Assembly: GCA_033763575.1 (NCBI GenBank)
Contig: JANRKF010000033.1
Span: 6,278 to 70,277 of the forward strand
Direction of reading: 5' to 3'
Length of the DNA: 64,000 nt
From: Alphaproteobacteria bacterium
Lineage (GTDB): Bacteria > Pseudomonadota > Alphaproteobacteria > Rickettsiales > SXRF01
Position 1 is the first letter of the stretch, and each line of letters begins with the position of its first letter. A program made the translations under genes and the position numbers. Below the pieces are notes generated by a model. That model had not been told where the DNA came from. It saw only the letters and a program-made list of their open reading frames with translations, and did not search any database. Of this stretch, positions 4,495 through 50,391 are shown in pieces.

Positions 4495-4662
4495 ATGAAA
4501 ACACTTGTACAACTCTTTAAAGATGAAAATGGTGCAACCGCAATTGAATACGGCCTGATCGCCGCCCTGATTTCCGTTGCCGCTATCGGTGCAATGACTG
4601 CTCTTGGCACCCAGCTTTCGACCACTTTCGGTGATGTTACCGCAAGCCTGGCCGCTGTATAA
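4495..4662 (+). CDS. flp: Flp family type IVb pilin (55 aa)
   Basis: Unlisted short ORF: MKTLVQLFKDENGATAIEYGLIAALISVAAIGAMTALGTQLSTTFGDVTASLAAV. It has the Flp motif G/ATAIEYGLI. GGAGA lies upstream of the ATG. Confidence 0.85.
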   Translation: MKTLVQLFKDENGATAIEYGLIAALISVAAIGAMTALGTQLSTTFGDVTASLAAV

Positions 4663-4717
4663 TTCCACTTATTGCAAAATAAAAACAAATAACCATATTA
4701 ACAACGGGAGACTGACC

Positions 4718-4885
4718 ATGAAAACACTTGTACAACTTTTTAAAAATGAAGATGGCGCAACCGCAATCGAATACGGCCTGATCGCCGCCCTGATTTCTGT
4801 TGCCGCTATCGGTGCAATGACCGCTCTGGGTACTCAGCTGTCGACCACGTTCGGCGACATTACTGCGAGCCTGGCTGCTGTATAA
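4718..4885 (+). CDS. flp: Flp family type IVb pilin, tandem paralog (55 aa)
   Basis: MKTLVQLFKNEDGATAIEYGLIAALISVAAIGAMTALGTQLSTTFGDITASLAAV differs from the first copy at three residues. The 5' leader GGGAGACTGACCATG is the same. Confidence 0.85.
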   Translation: MKTLVQLFKNEDGATAIEYGLIAALISVAAIGAMTALGTQLSTTFGDITASLAAV

Positions 4886-4905
4886 TATTACCTCTTCAGC
4901 AAAAT

Positions 4906-25520: not shown

Positions 25521-28451
25521 TCAATACCCACTCCATTCGCTGCGGCGGATAAGATGGTCATATTCATCCCGATATTCCGGTAGTTTAGGGATGATTTCCG
25601 GGGCGTAAGGAGTATTTGCGGTGAGGCTTTCGGCAATCATCGCAAAAAGCTCCTCCTGCGTGCGCGCAAGCAAGTCGGTTGCCTCGCTGATTTCGACAAA
25701 ATCCTTGCCCTGCTCGCGGGTTTTGAGCGCCCAGTAAATCAGCGCGCCGGGCGAGGCAGCGATGCGGCCGGAACGAATCAGCGCCAGCGCGGTAAGCGGC
25801 AATTGCTTCGCCTCGCCCTTTTCGACATTGGCTTTGCCGGGCGGCGTGCCGGTTTTGTAATCGATGAGGCGGAAGCTGCCCGCCATCACATCCACCCGGT
25901 CGGCGCGGGCGGAAAAAATGATGCGCTCCCCGGCAATCTCAAATTCCCACTTCGCCGAGACCTCGCTTTCGGTGCTGTATCGTTCGCGGCGAAACTCACG
26001 TTCGCGGGCGAGCCAATGGCGGGCGATCGCCTCAAAACGCGGCCACCAGAGCGTCGCCACGCTGGGACGGTGCATATAAGGCTGGAACTCGCGCTGCCCC
26101 TGCGCGATCAGAATCTGGTAAGCCTGTTCGGGCAGGGCGTCCGGATGCGCCGCCGAAAAATGCTCAAGCGCCGAGTGAATCAACTCGCCGAACTCGCGGT
26201 TGTCCGGCTCCGCGTCGAGCTCGTCCAGCGCTTTCAATCCCAGAATATATTTCGCGTAGAAGGCATAGGGTTCGCTGCTCCACAAATCGATAGCGCTCGG
26301 CGAAAAGCGGCGCGGGCGGGCGGAAGGCGGCGGCACCGGCTTCGGGCGCTCAAGCGGCGGAAGTGCGCGGGGCGCATCCTGCGCGTCGATGCTCGCCTGC
26401 ATGAGGGCACTTATATCCATCGCCGCAAGCAGTTGCGGGTTTTTCCCGCCGACCAGCGTAGCAAGCCGCACCCACCAGCGCGACGGCTCCTGCGGGCTTC
26501 CGGATATTTTCCGCGCGCGCGACAAAATCACTTCCGGCGCATGCAGCAACATCCACACGTCATGCGCGCTCTGCCCGGTCTGCACCGCATGCGACGGCAG
26601 GCCGAACGATTCGCGCATCGGCGCGCTCATCCACGGATCGACGGTCATGGCGGCGGGCCATATCCCCTCGTTCATCTCGCCCAGAATGACGAGATCGTAA
26701 TGCATGAGCCGCGCCTCAATGGGACTTAGGATATGCAGGCGCGGATGGGTGCCAAACGGCCTGCGCGCCACTTCCCGCGCCAGCAGCGCATCGAACAAGG
26801 CGGGGTAATCATGCGGCAGGATATCGCCGAGCGCAGCCGCTGCTACCGCCCATTCAGAGAGCGTTTTCGAGAGCGCCTCGCCGCTTTCCTGCGCCCATAA
26901 AATATCGCCACCGCTTTGGTCTTGCGTAGTGGCGATCGCCTCGGCAACGCGGCAATGCACCGCCAGCAATTCGGCCAACGGAGCCGGTGTATTGCGCAGG
27001 AACAACATCTCCAGCGGACGCAGCAGCTCGCGCAGCCGCGCAATGAATTGCTGCAACCCGGCAGAGGTGGTTTTTTCTTTGAGCTCCTCCACCAGCGCAT
27101 CCATGCCCGGTTGCAGGCGCACGCCGCGCAGGCAGGCGGCCTCCAGCGCACGGCTATATTCACGCGCCGCCACCGTATCCGATTCCACCGCCGCGAAAGG
27201 ATGGCGCAGCAATGCAAGCAGCGGCAGCGGGGCCGCACCGCTTACCGCCACTTCCAGCAACAGCCGCATGAACACGGCGCCCGGCGTATCGCGCATCGGC
27301 TGCCCCGCCGAATCATCGATGGCGATGCCCCAGCGCGCACATTGCGCCGACACCATCCGCGCAAGCTGGCGGTCGGGCGTGATGAGGGCGGCGGTTTTTT
27401 CCGGCACCTCCAGCGCCTCGCGCAGCTTGAACGCAATCATCCGCGCTTCGTCGTTCTGCGTGTCGGCCTGCATCAGCGACAGATGCGCGAAATCCTGTCC
27501 AAGCGGCAACTCCGCCTCTCGCCAACGGGCGGTGAGAGCGGCGGGGGCAAAGAGCGTGCTCATTCCCTCTCCATTAGGGGGAGGGTTAGGGTGGGGGCAT
27601 ATTTGCGTTATATTACGAACATTGTGCAGGAATGCCCCCCTCCCGGCCTCCCCCCTACTGGGTGAGGAGAGGAGGAAATGCCGCAGGCCGTATTGCGGAT
27701 GGGTGGGGTCGAGCTGGTCCCACGCGGCATCGGTCATGGCGGCATCAAGCCCGGGCAAAATCACCATGCCGTTCGGCATCGCTGCAATCGCCCGAAGGAG
27801 CGCAGCAGTCGCAGGGATACTGCCGGTCGAGCCCGCCGCGACCACCGGGAAATCCGGCGGCGAGAGGCGCCATTTTTCCGCAAGCTGCAACATGCGGTCG
27901 CGCATGACCTCCGCCTCGTCGCGCATCCCCGCTTCGGCCAGAATGCGCGGCCATTGGCGGGTGATGATGGTGAGGAATTCGGTGGTGGTTTTCCAGTGTT
28001 TGGCCAGCTCCTCGAACGGCGCCAGCTCTTTCAGCTTCTCAAAATCAAGGCTGTGCCGGATGGTTTCATCAAGCAGGCGGGCAAGCTCGACCGCAAGCTG
28101 ATAGGCCCGCGCCGGCGTGGTTTGCCCCTGCCCGAGAATGAGGCGGGTAAGCATGGAGAGCCGCTCTTTCTCCGGCATGATGCGCGGCACCTCTTCGCCC
28201 GCGAGCGCAAGAATATCCGCCTCGCCGTCGATTTCACCGATCGGCATGATGCGCGGCAGCAGAAGCGGCGTGCCCATGCTTTCGCGCAAAAACGCCTCGC
28301 GCAGGCTGCGGCAGCTCCGGCGCGACGGCAGCAGCACCAGCGTCCGCGCCAGCTCCAGCGGATCGCCGCGATGCTTCGCAAGCAGCATACCGGCCAGTGC
28401 ATCGAGGAACGGCAGGTGCGGCGGCAGGTTATAAAAACATCGAACGCTCAT
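25521..28451 (-). CDS. addB: double-strand break repair protein AddB (alphaproteobacterial type)
   Basis: About 976 aa. The N-terminus is MSVRCFYNLPPHLPFLDALA. The C-terminal PD-(D/E)XK nuclease region is RADRVD...RLIDYKTG. The track ORF start at 28547 lies in a repeat. ATG 28451 is preferred. Confidence 0.85.
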   Translation of the reverse strand: MSVRCFYNLPPHLPFLDALAGMLLAKHRGDPLELARTLVLLPSRRSCRSLREAFLRESMGTPLLLPRIMPIGEIDGEADILALAGEEVPRIMPEKERLSMLTRLILGQGQTTPARAYQLAVELARLLDETIRHSLDFEKLKELAPFEELAKHWKTTTEFLTIITRQWPRILAEAGMRDEAEVMRDRMLQLAEKWRLSPPDFPVVAAGSTGSIPATAALLRAIAAMPNGMVILPGLDAAMTDAAWDQLDPTHPQYGLRHFLLSSPSRGEAGRGAFLHNVRNITQICPHPNPPPNGEGMSTLFAPAALTARWREAELPLGQDFAHLSLMQADTQNDEARMIAFKLREALEVPEKTAALITPDRQLARMVSAQCARWGIAIDDSAGQPMRDTPGAVFMRLLLEVAVSGAAPLPLLALLRHPFAAVESDTVAAREYSRALEAACLRGVRLQPGMDALVEELKEKTTSAGLQQFIARLRELLRPLEMLFLRNTPAPLAELLAVHCRVAEAIATTQDQSGGDILWAQESGEALSKTLSEWAVAAAALGDILPHDYPALFDALLAREVARRPFGTHPRLHILSPIEARLMHYDLVILGEMNEGIWPAAMTVDPWMSAPMRESFGLPSHAVQTGQSAHDVWMLLHAPEVILSRARKISGSPQEPSRWWVRLATLVGGKNPQLLAAMDISALMQASIDAQDAPRALPPLERPKPVPPPSARPRRFSPSAIDLWSSEPYAFYAKYILGLKALDELDAEPDNREFGELIHSALEHFSAAHPDALPEQAYQILIAQGQREFQPYMHRPSVATLWWPRFEAIARHWLAREREFRRERYSTESEVSAKWEFEIAGERIIFSARADRVDVMAGSFRLIDYKTGTPPGKANVEKGEAKQLPLTALALIRSGRIAASPGALIYWALKTREQGKDFVEISEATDLLARTQEELFAMIAESLTANTPYAPEIIPKLPEYRDEYDHLIRRSEWSGY
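27565..27674. repeat. palindromic G/C-tract element inserted in frame inside addB
   Basis: One arm is CCTCTCCATTAGGGGGAGGGTTAGGGTGGGGGCAT. The other is ATGCCCCCCTCCCGGCCTCCCCCCTACTGGGTGAGGAGAGG. It is translated as SPSRGEAGRGAFLHNVRNITQICPHPNPPPNGEG. Confidence 0.6.
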
Positions 28452-28462
28452 ACACATACCTT

Positions 28463-28666
28463 CGCTCCCCCCTTGAGGGGGAGCGGCTGAAAGCGAGCAT
28501 GTAAAGCGACGCTCGAAGCTGTGGGGGGTGATTTTTGAAACTGGCACAAGGCGTCAAGCATCAGATAGGCGATGCCCAGCCCGCGACCTTCAACATCTAA
28601 TCCCCCCCACGGCTTAACCAGCGTGCGTTGCACTTGGTTTCGCCTGCTCCCCCTCAAGGGGGGAGC
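28463..28666. repeat. nested palindromic element in the addB 5' region
   Basis: Its ends are CGCTCCCCCCTTGAGGGGGAGCG and GCTCCCCCTCAAGGGGGGAGC. The inner inverted pair is GTGGGGGGTGAT / ATCTAATCCCCCCCAC. Confidence 0.55.
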
Positions 28667-28769
28667 GTAGTATAGAAGTATATGAAAACATCGGTTATTC
28701 ATGATATCTTAATATGTAAAACGCATAGATTATGCTATCATTACTCCATACCAGACGATGTGAAAAGAC

Positions 28770-30401
28770 ATGGTTGCTGACATCGAACAAGTGCCGGAAT
28801 TATTGGCCTACGAATTAGCCACGCTTTGGCGCGCCCATGCGGCGGTGGGGCTTTCGGGCTTCATGCAGCTCTATACCCGCGACGACCAGGTGCCGTTTCG
28901 CGCCAAGCAGGCGGGGCTTTCGTTCTGGTTCGGGCCGGACGACAACGAGGCGGCGATTGCCGAGATCATCCGGCATTACAACTCCGGCCAGCTTCCCAAC
29001 ACGCCGCTCCTCCTCAACCCCATCGTGCATAAAAAAGAGGGGGGCGATTATGTGCCGCTCGGTTCGGGGTTCGCGTGGTGCACATCGCTCTCGCTTGGCG
29101 TCGATGTCCTCAACAACGAATCCGGCGAGCGGCTTCAGGAGGCGGGCGCCATCGCCGGGCTGTTCGAGCGCGGCGATAATGACCGCGCCGGCCTCAAAAT
29201 CCTCGCCTTCACCACCGAAGCCCAACCACCCACAGGGGACGGGAAAACCGTCACCGGCTGCCGCGAGCTTTACGAGCTGGCCCATATCAAAAGCGAGCAA
29301 TATGCCGGTCATTACCTGCTGTCGGGTATTTCCTACCTCACCAATAACGGCCTGTTCCAGCACCCCGATTTCAGGGCGCTGTTTAAAAGCGAAGTGGACA
29401 TAAAAACGCTCGCGATCAATGTGCAAAACGTGATCGATGCCGCCTATTGCTGGAATGCTTACGACCACCACCATTCGCTCTACCAGAAATTCGGGCGCAA
29501 ACCGGCGAATGTCGAACAAAACCTGCGTTTTTTCAATCTGGTCGCACGCGATGTGAGGCTGTTCGATGCCACCGGCCCGATGCGCAAAGAGGCCGATGCC
29601 ATGTTCGAATTTATCGTGCCGGGATGGATTCCCCGCGGCGCGGTGACGCTGCTTGCGGCTTCCGGCGGCACCGGAAAATCCAGCCTCGCCCACCAGCTCT
29701 GCGTCATGGGCGCGATCGATTACAAGAAAGGCGAAGAAGCGCCGAAATGGCTGGGCCAGCGGCTGGCGATCGAGAAATGCACCGGCATCAATGTTTATTT
29801 CGCAGGCGAGGACGGCCCGCCGATCATCAACGCTCGCGCCGCGCTGTTCGACCCCAAGGGCCGCGCCAAACGCCTGATGTTCCAACGCACCGATTTCGGC
29901 GAGGGCGTCACCTTCCCGGAATATCTCCGCAGCCTGCACAAGATTCCGGAAGTGCCGATCATGGTGATCGATCCGGCGCGGAAATACCTGACCGGCGATG
30001 AGAACGACGCCGGGGCGGTGAGTGAATTCTTCGAGGCGATTGAAGAATTCGCAATCAAGAAAAATACCGCCGTGGTGGTGGTGCATCACCTGCAGAAAAA
30101 CGCCTACCCCAAAACCGCGCGCGAGGTGCTCGATATGCTGCGTGGATCGCAGGTGTTCATCGACCGGCCCCGCGTGGTAATCGGCATGTTCCGCGACGGG
30201 CCGTATACGATTGCCGGGCTGGCCAAAAACAACATCCCGCCGAATATGGGCATGGTCGCCGAGGAGCGCGTTTTCGCCCGCGACCCGCAGCATTTAAGCC
30301 TCATCTGGATGCCCGGCGACCAGGGCATACGCAATGCAGCGCTTTCGGAAGAAGAGCTGGAAGCGCTCGCCGAAGAAGCCAAAAAAGAGGGCCGGATCTA
30401 A
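28770..30401 (+). CDS. RepA/AAA_25-like RecA-fold ATPase with an unknown ~290-aa N-terminal domain
   Basis: Walker A LLAASGGTGKSSLAHQL, Walker B IMVIDPA, and VVVVHHLQKN as in RepA-like/AAA_25 ATPases. The N-terminal half matches nothing I recognise. Confidence 0.7.
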   Translation: MVADIEQVPELLAYELATLWRAHAAVGLSGFMQLYTRDDQVPFRAKQAGLSFWFGPDDNEAAIAEIIRHYNSGQLPNTPLLLNPIVHKKEGGDYVPLGSGFAWCTSLSLGVDVLNNESGERLQEAGAIAGLFERGDNDRAGLKILAFTTEAQPPTGDGKTVTGCRELYELAHIKSEQYAGHYLLSGISYLTNNGLFQHPDFRALFKSEVDIKTLAINVQNVIDAAYCWNAYDHHHSLYQKFGRKPANVEQNLRFFNLVARDVRLFDATGPMRKEADAMFEFIVPGWIPRGAVTLLAASGGTGKSSLAHQLCVMGAIDYKKGEEAPKWLGQRLAIEKCTGINVYFAGEDGPPIINARAALFDPKGRAKRLMFQRTDFGEGVTFPEYLRSLHKIPEVPIMVIDPARKYLTGDENDAGAVSEFFEAIEEFAIKKNTAVVVVHHLQKNAYPKTAREVLDMLRGSQVFIDRPRVVIGMFRDGPYTIAGLAKNNIPPNMGMVAEERVFARDPQHLSLIWMPGDQGIRNAALSEEELEALAEEAKKEGRI

Positions 30402-30572
30402 AACCTCCCCCCTTGAGGGGGAGGAAGAAATTTCTTGGGCTTACAACGTAAGCCTTAGAAATTTCAGGTGGGGGGTACAGCTTCTTCAAGTTTACCCCTC
30501 TCCCACTCGACTAACCGCTTCCCTTCGGTAAGCGGAAGTCTCGTTGCCCTCTCCCTCAAGGGGAGAGGGAAT
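30399..30572 (+). mobile_element. 174-bp multi-hairpin element, copy 1, starting with the TAA stop of the ATPase gene
   Basis: It is roughly 95 percent identical by eye to the reverse complement of 49121..49294. It is flanked by a 25-bp imperfect direct repeat (30374-30398 and 30573-30597). Confidence 0.85.
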
Positions 30573-30605
30573 AGAAGCCAAAAAAGAGGGGCGGATTTAG
30601 CTTTT

Positions 30606-30695
30606 GTCATTGCGAGGAGCGCAGCGACGTGGCAATCCATTTTACTTATCAACACAGGCAAGGCAGATGGATTGCTTTGCTATGCTCGCAATGAC
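30606..30695. repeat. double-hairpin palindromic element (GTCATTGCGAG family)
   Basis: One arm is GTCATTGCGAGGAGCGCAGCGACGTGGCAATCCAT. The other is ATGGATTGCTTTGCTATGCTCGCAATGAC. It lies just upstream of tgt. Confidence 0.7.
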
Positions 30696-30704
30696 GAATA
30701 GAAC

Positions 30705-48941: not shown

Positions 48942-49120
48942 CCTCCGTTACGATGATTCGATTACTGTTATTATTTTTTCCCGGCTTTTTACGCGCCGGT
49001 GTTTTGTGCCATCAGCCTAACGCAACCGGATAATAGGGCAAGGGGGTTTTTGGTTAACAATCTGAAATAACTAAGTAATTTAGTATGCTATTGTCAGGCC
49101 CGGTACAGCGCCCCGCCGGT

Positions 49121-49294
49121 TATCTGCCTCTCCCCTTGAGGGAGAGGGCAACGAGACTTCCGCTTCCGAAGGAAAGCGGTTAGTCGAGTGGGAGAGGGGT
49201 AAACTTGAAGGCTGCACCCCCCACCTGAAATTTCTAAGGCTTACGTTGTAAGCCCAAGAAATTTCTTCCTCCCCCTCAAGGGGGGAGGTTTTAA
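49121..49294 (-). mobile_element. 174-bp multi-hairpin element, copy 2, abutting the anmK stop codon
   Basis: It is the reverse complement of copy 1 (30399..30572), with a few substitutions and indels. It is flanked by a perfect 23-bp direct repeat (49098-49120 and 49295-49317). Confidence 0.85.
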
Positions 49295-50391
49295 GCCCGG
49301 TACAGCGCCCCGCCGGTCACGGCACGCAGTGCGCCGGTGGTGGTGGGCAGCGACAGCGGCAATCGTTTCAGGCTGCGCACGGCGAGGAACGCGAAGGCCT
49401 GCGCCTCCAGCGCATCGCCTTTCCAGCCGAGCGCCTCGACGCGGTAGACATTGCCGAGCGCGTCTTTCAAGCCCTGCATCAGGGCCGGGTTCAGCCTGCC
49501 GCCGCCGGAAACAAACCATTGCCGGGCCGGCGCCGGAAAATAGTGCTGCCCGCGCCTGACCGCTTCGACCACGAAGGCGGTAAGCGTCGCCGCGCCGTCT
49601 TCCGCGGAAAGATGCTGCATGTGATCGGCGGAGAAGTGATTGCGGTCGAGCGATTTCGGCGGATGCTTGGAAAAATAAGCATTGTTGAGCAACATATCGA
49701 GCGTGGCCTGATCCACTTTCCCCGCAAGCGCCAGCTTGCCGTCGGCATCGTAATCGACGCCGGTTTTCGCATCGGCCCATTCATTGAGCATCACGTTGCC
49801 GGGGCCGGTATCGAACGCGAGGATGTCCAGCGCCATCAGCTCCGACCCGCCGCGCTCGGACTTCCCGATCCATGTGACATTGGCAATGCCACCGATATTC
49901 AGCACCGCGATCGGCAGCTCCATATGCCTTGAGAGCGCCGCGTGATAAAGCGGAACCAGCGGCGCACCCTCGCCGCCCGCCGCCACATCGCGCCGCCGGA
50001 AATCGCACACCACGTCGATCTTGGTTTTTTCCGCCAACAGCGCGCCGTTGCCCATCTGCCAGGTGAGATCCTCCTCCGGGCGATGCGCCACCGTCTGCCC
50101 GTGGAAACCCACCACCTGCACGTCTTTATAAGAAAGCCCCGCCTTGTCGAGCAGCATCTTCACCGCCTCGGCGTGCTTCATGGTCATCACATGCTCGGCC
50201 AGCAGCAAATCGCCGCGCCCGCGCACCGCCGCCGCCAGTATCGCCTTCATCGCCTCGTCATACGGCAGAGTGAGCCACGCCCCGAACTCATGCACCTGCT
50301 CGCCGTCCGTGCGGATGAGCGCCGCGTCAATGCCGTCAAGCGACGTGCCGCTCATCAGCCCCAGCGACCAGCGTGTTTCTTCTTTTTGCAT
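49291..50391 (-). CDS. anmK: anhydro-N-acetylmuramic acid kinase
   Basis: 366 aa. Contains GLMSGTSLDGIDAAL, GFHGQTV, DFRRRDVAAGGEGAPL and FDTGPGN. Confidence 0.9.
   Translation of the reverse strand: MQKEETRWSLGLMSGTSLDGIDAALIRTDGEQVHEFGAWLTLPYDEAMKAILAAAVRGRGDLLLAEHVMTMKHAEAVKMLLDKAGLSYKDVQVVGFHGQTVAHRPEEDLTWQMGNGALLAEKTKIDVVCDFRRRDVAAGGEGAPLVPLYHAALSRHMELPIAVLNIGGIANVTWIGKSERGGSELMALDILAFDTGPGNVMLNEWADAKTGVDYDADGKLALAGKVDQATLDMLLNNAYFSKHPPKSLDRNHFSADHMQHLSAEDGAATLTAFVVEAVRRGQHYFPAPARQWFVSGGGRLNPALMQGLKDALGNVYRVEALGWKGDALEAQAFAFLAVRSLKRLPLSLPTTTGALRAVTGGALYRA

Follow-up and report, generated by a model that had tools for sequence, protein, structure and literature searches.

Bacterial MITEs, of which the Correia (CREE) elements of Neisseria, ERIC and MITEAba12 are examples, are small, non-coding sequences with terminal inverted repeats and a strong fold that are found in multiple copies. 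They are flanked by a target duplication, are absent from the same site in relatives and can alter the ends of genes. In these examples the duplications are short, being ~9 bp for MITEAba12 and TA for both the Correia and ERIC elements. Most MITEs are AT-rich and are inserted in AT-rich DNA (PMC10969869). The clearest bacterial precedent found for long duplications of fixed length is the IS1202 family, in which the duplications made by the different subgroups measure 27-28, 15-17 and 5-6 bp (bioRxiv 10.1101/2022.12.17.520857; PMC10132070); its members are 1.5 kb long, encode a transposase and carry TGT ends. A literature search for target duplications of 23 bp, or for long ones in general, returned nothing bacterial.

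Repeats of the REP, BIME and REPIN type are built from short G+C-rich hairpins arranged in inverted pairs; they are modular, are abundant after stop codons and are likely to affect the 3' ends of mRNAs. Transposition of the IS200/IS605 type is not known to make a target duplication, and the same is true of REPINs. The Rickettsia palindromic elements (RPEs) are alphaproteobacterial palindromes that are tolerated inside genes, where they are translated as part of the host protein. Islands that integrate into tRNA genes or into the 3' ends of genes work via att cores that they carry as a copy of the gene end. Casposons, and Cas1 during spacer integration, generate a long duplication of fixed length via a ruler-like second cut, and for some casposons the target lies at the 3' end of a gene.

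The stretch of DNA analysed here (64,000 nucleotides at its full length, hereafter the window) carries two copies of a palindromic sequence, each inserted at the very end of a gene. The sequence is a lineage-specific, palindromic, MITE-like element that combines an unusually long 23-bp duplication with an end that rebuilds the stop codon. The likeness to MITEs is seen in its size (174 and 176 bp, below the ~500 bp that bounds MITEs), its apparently non-coding nature, its terminal inverted repeats, the target-derived repeat at either side (23/23 and 22/23 positions identical) and its presence as two copies in 64 kb that are absent from every relative examined. Unlike MITEs, it has a duplication of 23 bp rather than a much shorter one, is G+C-rich, lies in coding DNA, gives a stop codon in exact phase at both copies and has no parent insertion sequence in the window or loci scanned. 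It differs from the IS1202 family in that its ends read TAAAACC... and ...GATA and that it is without a transposase; descent from that family was considered and rejected, as TGT termini are absent and a 23-bp duplication falls outside all three size classes of the subgroups. The inverted pair of hairpins typical of REPINs is present, whereas the exact 23-bp target duplication sets the element apart from them, and no RAYT was found among the window genes scanned or the hairpin-flanked ORFs of the loci. A likeness to the RPEs, judged by description, lies in a family member found inside mutS (see below), whereas the 174-bp element stays outside the protein by giving a stop codon. The likeness to casposons is a mechanistic analogy only, no Cas1 or casposon feature having been seen.

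Insertions at the ends of anmK and an AAA_25 ATPase gene

The 23-mer GCCCGGTACAGCGCCCCGCCGGT occurs twice in the window, once at the end of anmK and once beyond it, and the same pair was recovered by an independent repeat finder (family D6). No third site is present in the window with up to three mismatches, 0 matches being expected (100 shuffles). The features of this locus are as follows.

49291-50391, minus strand: anmK (anhydro-N-acetylmuramic acid kinase), 366 aa; NCBIfam NF007141, 465 bits
49295-49317, minus strand: live copy of the 23-bp duplication, the last seven full codons and two bases of anmK
49291-49293, minus strand: live anmK stop, TAA, inside element copy A2
49121-49294, minus strand: element copy A2, 174 bp; minus strand T-TAAAACC...GGCAGATA; four hairpins
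49127-49147 and 49268-49288: terminal inverted repeats of A2, 21 nt, inside A2
49098-49120, minus strand: relic copy of the 23-bp duplication
49094-49097, minus strand: relic wobble base and ancestral stop (C TGA), then native intergenic DNA

Read on the minus strand, the live end of anmK is ACC GGC GGG GCG CTG TAC CGG GCT TAA, then AACCTCCCCCC, the reading continuing directly past the TAA into AACCTCCCCCCTTGAGGGGGAGG. The relic beyond A2 reads ACC GGC GGG GCG CTG TAC CGG GCC TGA before the intergenic DNA begins. If mismatched bases at the edges are counted, the duplication measures 24-25 rather than 23 bp.

When the 174-bp element was compared with the window by BLAST, one further copy was found at ~30398-30573 on the opposite strand, 97% identical and located at the 3' end of a gene for an AAA_25 ATPase.

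28770-30401, plus strand: AAA_25 ATPase gene, 543 aa
30375-30397, plus strand: live copy of the 23-bp duplication at the AAA_25 3' end, GAAGCCAAAAAAGAGGGCCGGAT
30398-30573, plus strand: element copy A1, 176 bp; C-TAAAACC...GGGAATA; 97% identical to A2
30399-30401, plus strand: live AAA_25 stop, TAA, inside A1
30574-30596, plus strand: relic copy of the 23-bp duplication, GAAGCCAAAAAAGAGGGGCGGAT, followed by T TAG (wobble base and ancestral stop) to 30600

The live end of this gene reads GAAGCCAAAAAAGAGGGCCGGAT-C-TAA-AACCTCCCC, and beyond A1 the relic reads GAAGCCAAAAAAGAGGGGCGGAT-T-TAG; the duplication is again 23 bp long, with one mismatch (22/23 identical). Alignment of the two loci in gene orientation revealed unbroken identity from the T of TAA (TAAAACC) onwards, with a different base before it (T at anmK, C at AAA_25) and unrelated flanks, and the live stops are thus element DNA. 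The boundaries of A1 and A2 agree to ~1 base at either end, each gene is interrupted between the second and third bases of its last sense codon, and the TAAAACC end points toward the live gene in each case. Position by position, the two 23-bp targets agree at 6/23 positions, and with so few matches the idea of a shared target consensus was dropped. The repeats are unrelated and each matches its own gene; the source of the repeat is therefore the target rather than the element. Since the junction lies after codon base 2 and the gene-proximal end of the element carries TAA, the live gene is completed by the 23 duplicated bases, a synonymous wobble base on the element side and the TAA; at both loci the live protein is unchanged, and the old wobble base and stop persist as a relic beyond the element.

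An earlier note on this DNA had described the 23-bp repeats that bracket 49121-49294, and all of its coordinates and readings at anmK are correct. It had also placed the live anmK TAA in the element terminus, which agrees with the start of the A1/A2 identity at the T of TAA, and had observed that the same element end faces the live gene at both loci, on opposite genome strands, as is indeed the case. Its count of two synonymous changes at the AAA_25 locus holds for one, which is within the 23-bp repeat, but the second is the junction base (C versus T); a third difference between the live and relic ends is the stop codon itself, TAA versus TAG. The suggestion that the anmK insertion is the younger of the two is plausible, but its basis is one mismatch.

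Both sites are uninterrupted in relatives. For anmK, seven loci from five distinct relatives with 83-90% protein identity (L001, L002, L003, L126, L127, L128 and L129) read ...GGALYRA, a stop and then unrelated intergenic DNA, the element being absent; all 25 of the closest homologues of the protein end ...VTGGA[L/H/F]YRA at equal length, and the C-terminus in the window, VTGGALYRA, is shared without change by 24 homologues. At the AAA_25 gene the element is likewise missing from five loci (L002, L140, L141, L142 and L143), which represent four distinct relatives with 79-85% protein identity; here too the stop is followed by unrelated intergenic DNA, and the protein has the same length. Uninterrupted sites and C-termini of equal length in relatives at ~80-90% protein identity indicate lineage-specific insertions with target duplication: a 174-bp sequence has been inserted, and 23 bp of target have been duplicated on either side of it.

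Which of the two repeat copies is the older can also be read from the relatives. The stops of L002 at both sites equal the relic stops of the window, namely TGA at anmK, which ends GCA TGA at the relic-stop position, and TAG at the AAA_25 gene, which ends ...ACC TAG. The AAA_25 gene of L140, the closest relative at that locus, ends gaggggcggatt TAA, and it shares the codons GGG CGG ATT with the relic, the live copy having GGC CGG ATC. The agreement of relic stops and codons with those of relatives marks the relic copy as the ancestral gene end, as the earlier note had presumed for GCC TGA. The empty sites that it had proposed looking for in related genomes have thus been found at seven anmK and five AAA_25 loci, and, together with the second copy, they support its wider view that the element is mobile, that the duplication is of the target type, that the stop beyond it is an ancestral relic and that the two loci share a mechanism.

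Structure of the element and its wider family

The element's terminal inverted repeats, CCTCCCCCCTTGAGGGGGAGG and CCTCTCCCTCAAGGGGAGAGG, are 21 nt long and 90% complementary (I6), and each is a hairpin by itself; a longer inverted repeat of 28 nt (82%, I2) was also detected. Beyond these repeats the element extends for another five or six bases, which are (Y)TAAAA at one end and (S)AR(A)TA at the opposite end, and the element ends as read are (Y)TAAAACCTCC on one side and TATCTGCC or TATTCCC on the other. At the gene-proximal end the TAA stands two bases ahead of the terminal hairpin. The interior holds a second long hairpin (GAAATTTCTTGGGCTTAC...GTAAGCCTTAGAAATTTC), a G-box (GGTGGGGGG) that pairs with CCCCTCTCCCAC, and a fourth hairpin. 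The predicted RNA fold of the whole element has an energy of -94.4 kcal/mol (z = -8.3 versus shuffles), and as single-stranded DNA the four hairpins are predicted to form separately. TAA and TA(A/G) flank the element core at both copies. A 3-bp TAA/TAR duplication of the IS5/Harbinger type was rejected as the true target repeat, as it leaves the 23-bp repeat unexplained and other members do not have it.

Most reading frames of the element contain stops, and a protein/translated search with all of its open frames joined gave no match; judged from its sequence, the element does not look protein-coding. No Rfam family reaches its gathering score on the element. The best Rfam match, RF01762 whalefall-1, takes in the first two hairpins as well as the G-box, the full length of the model (a CUCYCC-UUGR-GGRGAG hairpin, a second hairpin and UCAGGKUGRGG) being matched by the left half of the element. 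With 25.3 bits, where the gathering score is 37, the element resembles whalefall-1 but does not belong to it, and none of 18 family loci reached the whalefall-1 threshold. Consensus scans of the element for promoters and terminators gave nothing above shuffled expectation, bar one hairpin followed by TTTT. This hairpin and its TTTT are on the strand opposite the gene.

The element belongs to a much larger family. The terminal 19-mer CTCCCCCCTTGAGGGGGAG was found by a genome scan in at least 120 stretches of alphaproteobacterial genomes, and the matches listed include Mesorhizobium, Agrobacterium, Brucella, Rhizobium, Parvibaculum and many MAGs. What its members have in common is the terminal hairpin (CCTCCCCCCTTGAGGGGGAGG), a variable second one and a G-rich box; the terminal hairpin is followed by either a 4-5-nt linker or a 16-56-nt second hairpin and then by GGGTGGGGGG or GGGAGGGGGG, and the whole arrangement returns as a mirror image in the other half. 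The second hairpin always folds, while its sequence varies between lineages. No close copy of the 174-bp element itself was found by BLAST in 125 loci, where the matches listed contain other subfamilies only; no further copy was found in a plasmid collection searched in distant mode, and two metagenome scans, with an interior 23-mer and a terminal 25-mer, gave 0 matches each. The sequence of the terminal hairpin is absent from the searchable literature. Repeats already named in these bacteria, with which the terminal-hairpin family might coincide, include RIME of Rhizobium and Bru-RS of Brucella.

Long flanking repeats are uncommon in the family, accompanying only a handful of the ~290 family hairpins in the 125 genome loci. 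One instance is a third family member in the window, element B.

28453-28680, minus strand: element B, between addB and the AAA_25 gene, within the addB 5' end; terminal-hairpin 19-mer at both ends, different interior
28431-28452: flanking copy of element B at the live start, 22 bp
28681-28702: flanking copy of element B at the relic start, 22 bp; the two copies are 16/22 identical and both begin ATG

The repeats of element B are the first codons of addB, and it is the copy adjoining the native upstream DNA that matches the start in relatives; the element is absent from five loci (L002, L129, L140, L141 and L143). At L057 a 171-bp member lies between two 19-bp copies of the carB start (ATGCC[G/T]AAGCGCACCGACA), the upstream copy standing directly after the carA stop and the downstream copy heading the real carB. 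The chromosome behind this locus is OY969771.1. At L086 the end of a PMT_2 gene, TAA included, is present on either side of a family member as a 19-20-bp repeat, and at L020 an intergenic member has a flanking repeat of 25-27 bp. Together with element B, these three loci indicate that duplications of 19-27 bp, often over an ORF edge, are a recurring feature of a minority of the family. The long repeats at the L044 and L122 elements were set aside, as what recurs there is a different REP (GTCATTCCGGCG...) rather than a duplicated target. L020 also has the member within mutS, where it is in frame. In L001, a close relative, a member fills the exact gap between the convergent genes yhdP and tyrS, and the yhdP stop beside it is TAA, relatives having TAG.

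How the element may have been inserted

The 174-bp sequence is probably a mobile element of MITE-like or REP-like type, small, non-coding and highly palindromic, that belongs to the large alphaproteobacterial family and was moved in trans by way of target cuts staggered by 23 bp. A transposase with its gene at some other place in the genome would cut the two target strands 23 bp apart (~two helical turns), the ends of the element would be joined to the target, and repair of the gaps would yield the 23-bp duplication; either the enzyme or the joining step may prefer stop-codon sites. That both copies (n = 2) agree in length, orientation and phase speaks for a cut that is measured and for the stop position being preferred, and the fact that 2/2 copies share orientation and phase suggests stop-codon targeting. 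Random transposition followed by selection does not readily explain why both copies lie one base before the stop. An insertion could in principle be tolerated at many other positions, and the chance of finding 2/2 at a single position and orientation under random insertion and selection is put, by inference from these two copies, at ~10^-3 to 10^-5. The earlier note had concluded that a mechanism rather than coincidence was at work; this is reasonable in that the insertions agree in repeat length (23 bp), orientation and codon phase, but it concerns two copies, and no enzyme or master element was found.

A more specific version of transposition in trans, which is tentative and on balance doubtful, is insertion by a stop-finding enzyme, whose first cut would fall one base before a T-purine-purine stop and whose second would fall 23 bp upstream, the TAA of the element then rebuilding the gene. 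The members that duplicate a start codon would be the mirror image of such an insertion. The varied outermost sequences of the repeat-bearing members, and their repeat lengths of 19-27 bp, are awkward to fit to one enzyme. An ORF-bearing master copy would be bounded by the element end sequences TAAAACCTCCCCCCTTGAGGGGGAGG and CCTCTCCCTCAAGGGGAGAGGCAGATA; no transposase, recombinase, nuclease or protein-coding master copy turned up in the scanned genes of the window or beside members of the family. The three window elements have housekeeping or glycosyltransferase genes as their neighbours, genes of these two kinds also make up the block that follows the tRNA gene, and the ORFs flanked by family hairpins in other genomes are ordinary genes.

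The lack of a transposase among the window genes scanned and the ORFs near family hairpins would fit insertion through copying by the host, in which a growing strand, during replication or repair, would quit the anmK 3' end, use a palindromic element at another site as its template and rejoin the original template 23 nt upstream of its point of departure, so that the element ends up between the two copies of a duplication. Such copying is also in keeping with the unrelated outer ends and 19-27-bp repeats of the repeat-bearing members, with the extreme palindromes, which are likely to stall forks, and with the different element-adjacent base at the two copies (T versus C). We consider it unlikely all the same: an unguided process would not be expected to arrive twice at precisely 23 bp with orientation and phase unchanged, the two copies share their boundaries give or take ~1 base at either end, and microhomology is not evident at the junctions. 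A diversity-generating retroelement, which would have a variable repeat at a gene 3' end and a template repeat, was rejected, as the repeats are 23 bp rather than ~100 bp long and the differences are C/T, C/G and stop codons rather than changes at adenines; no reverse transcriptase was found among the neighbour genes scanned.

Movement as single-stranded DNA by a RAYT (IS200/IS605 type), with the element being of REP/REPIN type and the duplication secondary, is improbable. The short G+C-rich hairpins in inverted pairs, their abundance between genes and often just past stops, and a second hairpin of which the structure is kept while the sequence varies all fit such an origin, but an exact and recurring 23-bp duplication does not, and no Y1 transposase was found, whether in the scanned genes of the window or between the hairpins of the loci.

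More improbable by some distance is a site-specific recombinase for which the 23-bp repeats are attL/attR cores carried by the element. The restoration of the gene end after insertion is reminiscent of elements that target gene 3' ends; however, the two loci have unrelated 23-bp repeats, each derived from its own gene, and on this ground att-core integration was excluded, while the 174 bp leave no coding capacity and there is no integrase nearby. There is equally little probability that the structure is an ancient locus-specific tandem arrangement or an assembly artefact, even with a MAG as the source and repeated elements that can confuse assemblers, as a precise empty site was found in every relative examined, the same geometry recurs at two independent loci, and the different sequences after the two repeat copies (TTAA versus CTGA) would not be created by repeat collapse or chimerism.

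Consequences for gene ends

If the geometry of insertion by measured cut and element-borne stop holds over many copies, the element would represent a bacterial mobile element that invades coding DNA without damage to the protein. A long, measured target duplication paired with the element's own stop codon would add ORF ends to the short list of targeting rules known for bacterial transposons, and the same geometry would imply an enzyme, so far undescribed, whose cuts are staggered by 23 bp. The stop-finding reading, if true, would amount to a 'safe-harbour' strategy in which ORF ends are used as landing sites. If the geometry fails, the element is one more lineage-specific palindromic repeat family, notable just for its long duplication.

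Relic gene ends, and hairpins within 2 nt of stops, also affect gene annotation and probably mRNA decay and termination. The strong hairpin predicted 2 nt past the stop is likely to influence both termination and mRNA stability; in E. coli, REPs located within 15 nt of a stop stall ribosomes, according to the summary in PMC5082802. Members of the family are denser here than in the related genomes, with three elements in the 64-kb window versus one in ~135 kb of the relatives' DNA.

Duplicated gene edges around family members

The terminal hairpin of the 174-bp element, the non-coding palindromic insertion at the anmK stop, is shared by a further member of the family in the window, element B, whose interior is different. 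Element B lies within the 5' end of addB and has a copy of the gene's opening 22 bases, ATG among them, on each side (16 of 22 identical).

Window 28453-28680: element B
Window 28431-28702: whole arrangement at the addB start

In the live copy of the addB start, codons 2, 3 and 7 depart from the start in relatives. The relic copy agrees with the relatives in having Asn as codon 2 and His as codon 7, and departs from them at other codons.

Family members flanked by direct duplications were also found in other genomes (coordinates are those of each locus).

L057 2282-2490 (MAG Alphaproteobacteria, OY969771.1): 171-bp member between two 19-bp copies of the carB start
L086 5369-5495: one-hairpin member flanked on either side by 19-20 bp duplicated from the 3' end of a PMT_2 glycosyltransferase gene
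L020 6219-6373: 101-bp member with a 25-27-bp direct repeat, AAATTGTTTCACGTGAAACA(T/A)TTTT, on either side

At L057, the upstream carB-start copy is a relic that follows the carA stop, and the downstream copy is the start of the real carB. The duplication at L086 takes in the stop codon (TAA) of the glycosyltransferase gene. The flanking repeat at L020 is a palindrome in its own right and has the look of a regulator binding site.

Members within and between coding regions

L020 2262-2370 (MAG Rickettsiales bacterium RE-15aug16-6): member in frame within the N-terminal coding region of mutS
L001 8398-8504 (close relative of the source): 105-bp member between the convergent yhdP and tyrS stops

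The mutS reading across the L020 member is MGMAKQAVVLEDIS-PSPLEGEGGVGGDIRSGRTVVTPPPNLLPQGGEE-KTTPAMAQYL..., an arrangement that resembles that of Rickettsia palindromic elements, which are translated within proteins. The L001 member exactly occupies the space from the yhdP stop to the tyrS stop, and the yhdP stop that abuts it is TAA (TAG in relatives). At L009 and L056, further members seem to be located inside coding regions or immediately between them, for example between two nuo-like genes at L009. At L022 2930-3260 (MAG Asaia bogorensis), the family members are not single insertions but units of about 150 bp repeated in tandem.

Resemblance to an RNA motif and other repeats

The Rfam whalefall-1 RNA motif, known from metagenomes, matched window 49216-49291 (minus strand) over its full model with a sub-threshold score of 25.3 bits (gathering score 37), and the motif may represent part of a repeat element of this type.

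Window 30603-30698: different palindromic repeat, TTTGTCATTGCGAGGAGCGCA ... TGCTATGCTCGCAATGACGAA, just after the relic stop
Window 4496-4886: tandem pair of genes encoding small Flp-type pilin-like proteins (MKTLVQLFKDENGATAIEYGLIAALISVAAIG...), with about 90% identity between the two

The former repeat is also present in the relative L002 and is therefore older than the insertion. The tandem pilin-like genes account for D1, the 183-nt direct repeat.
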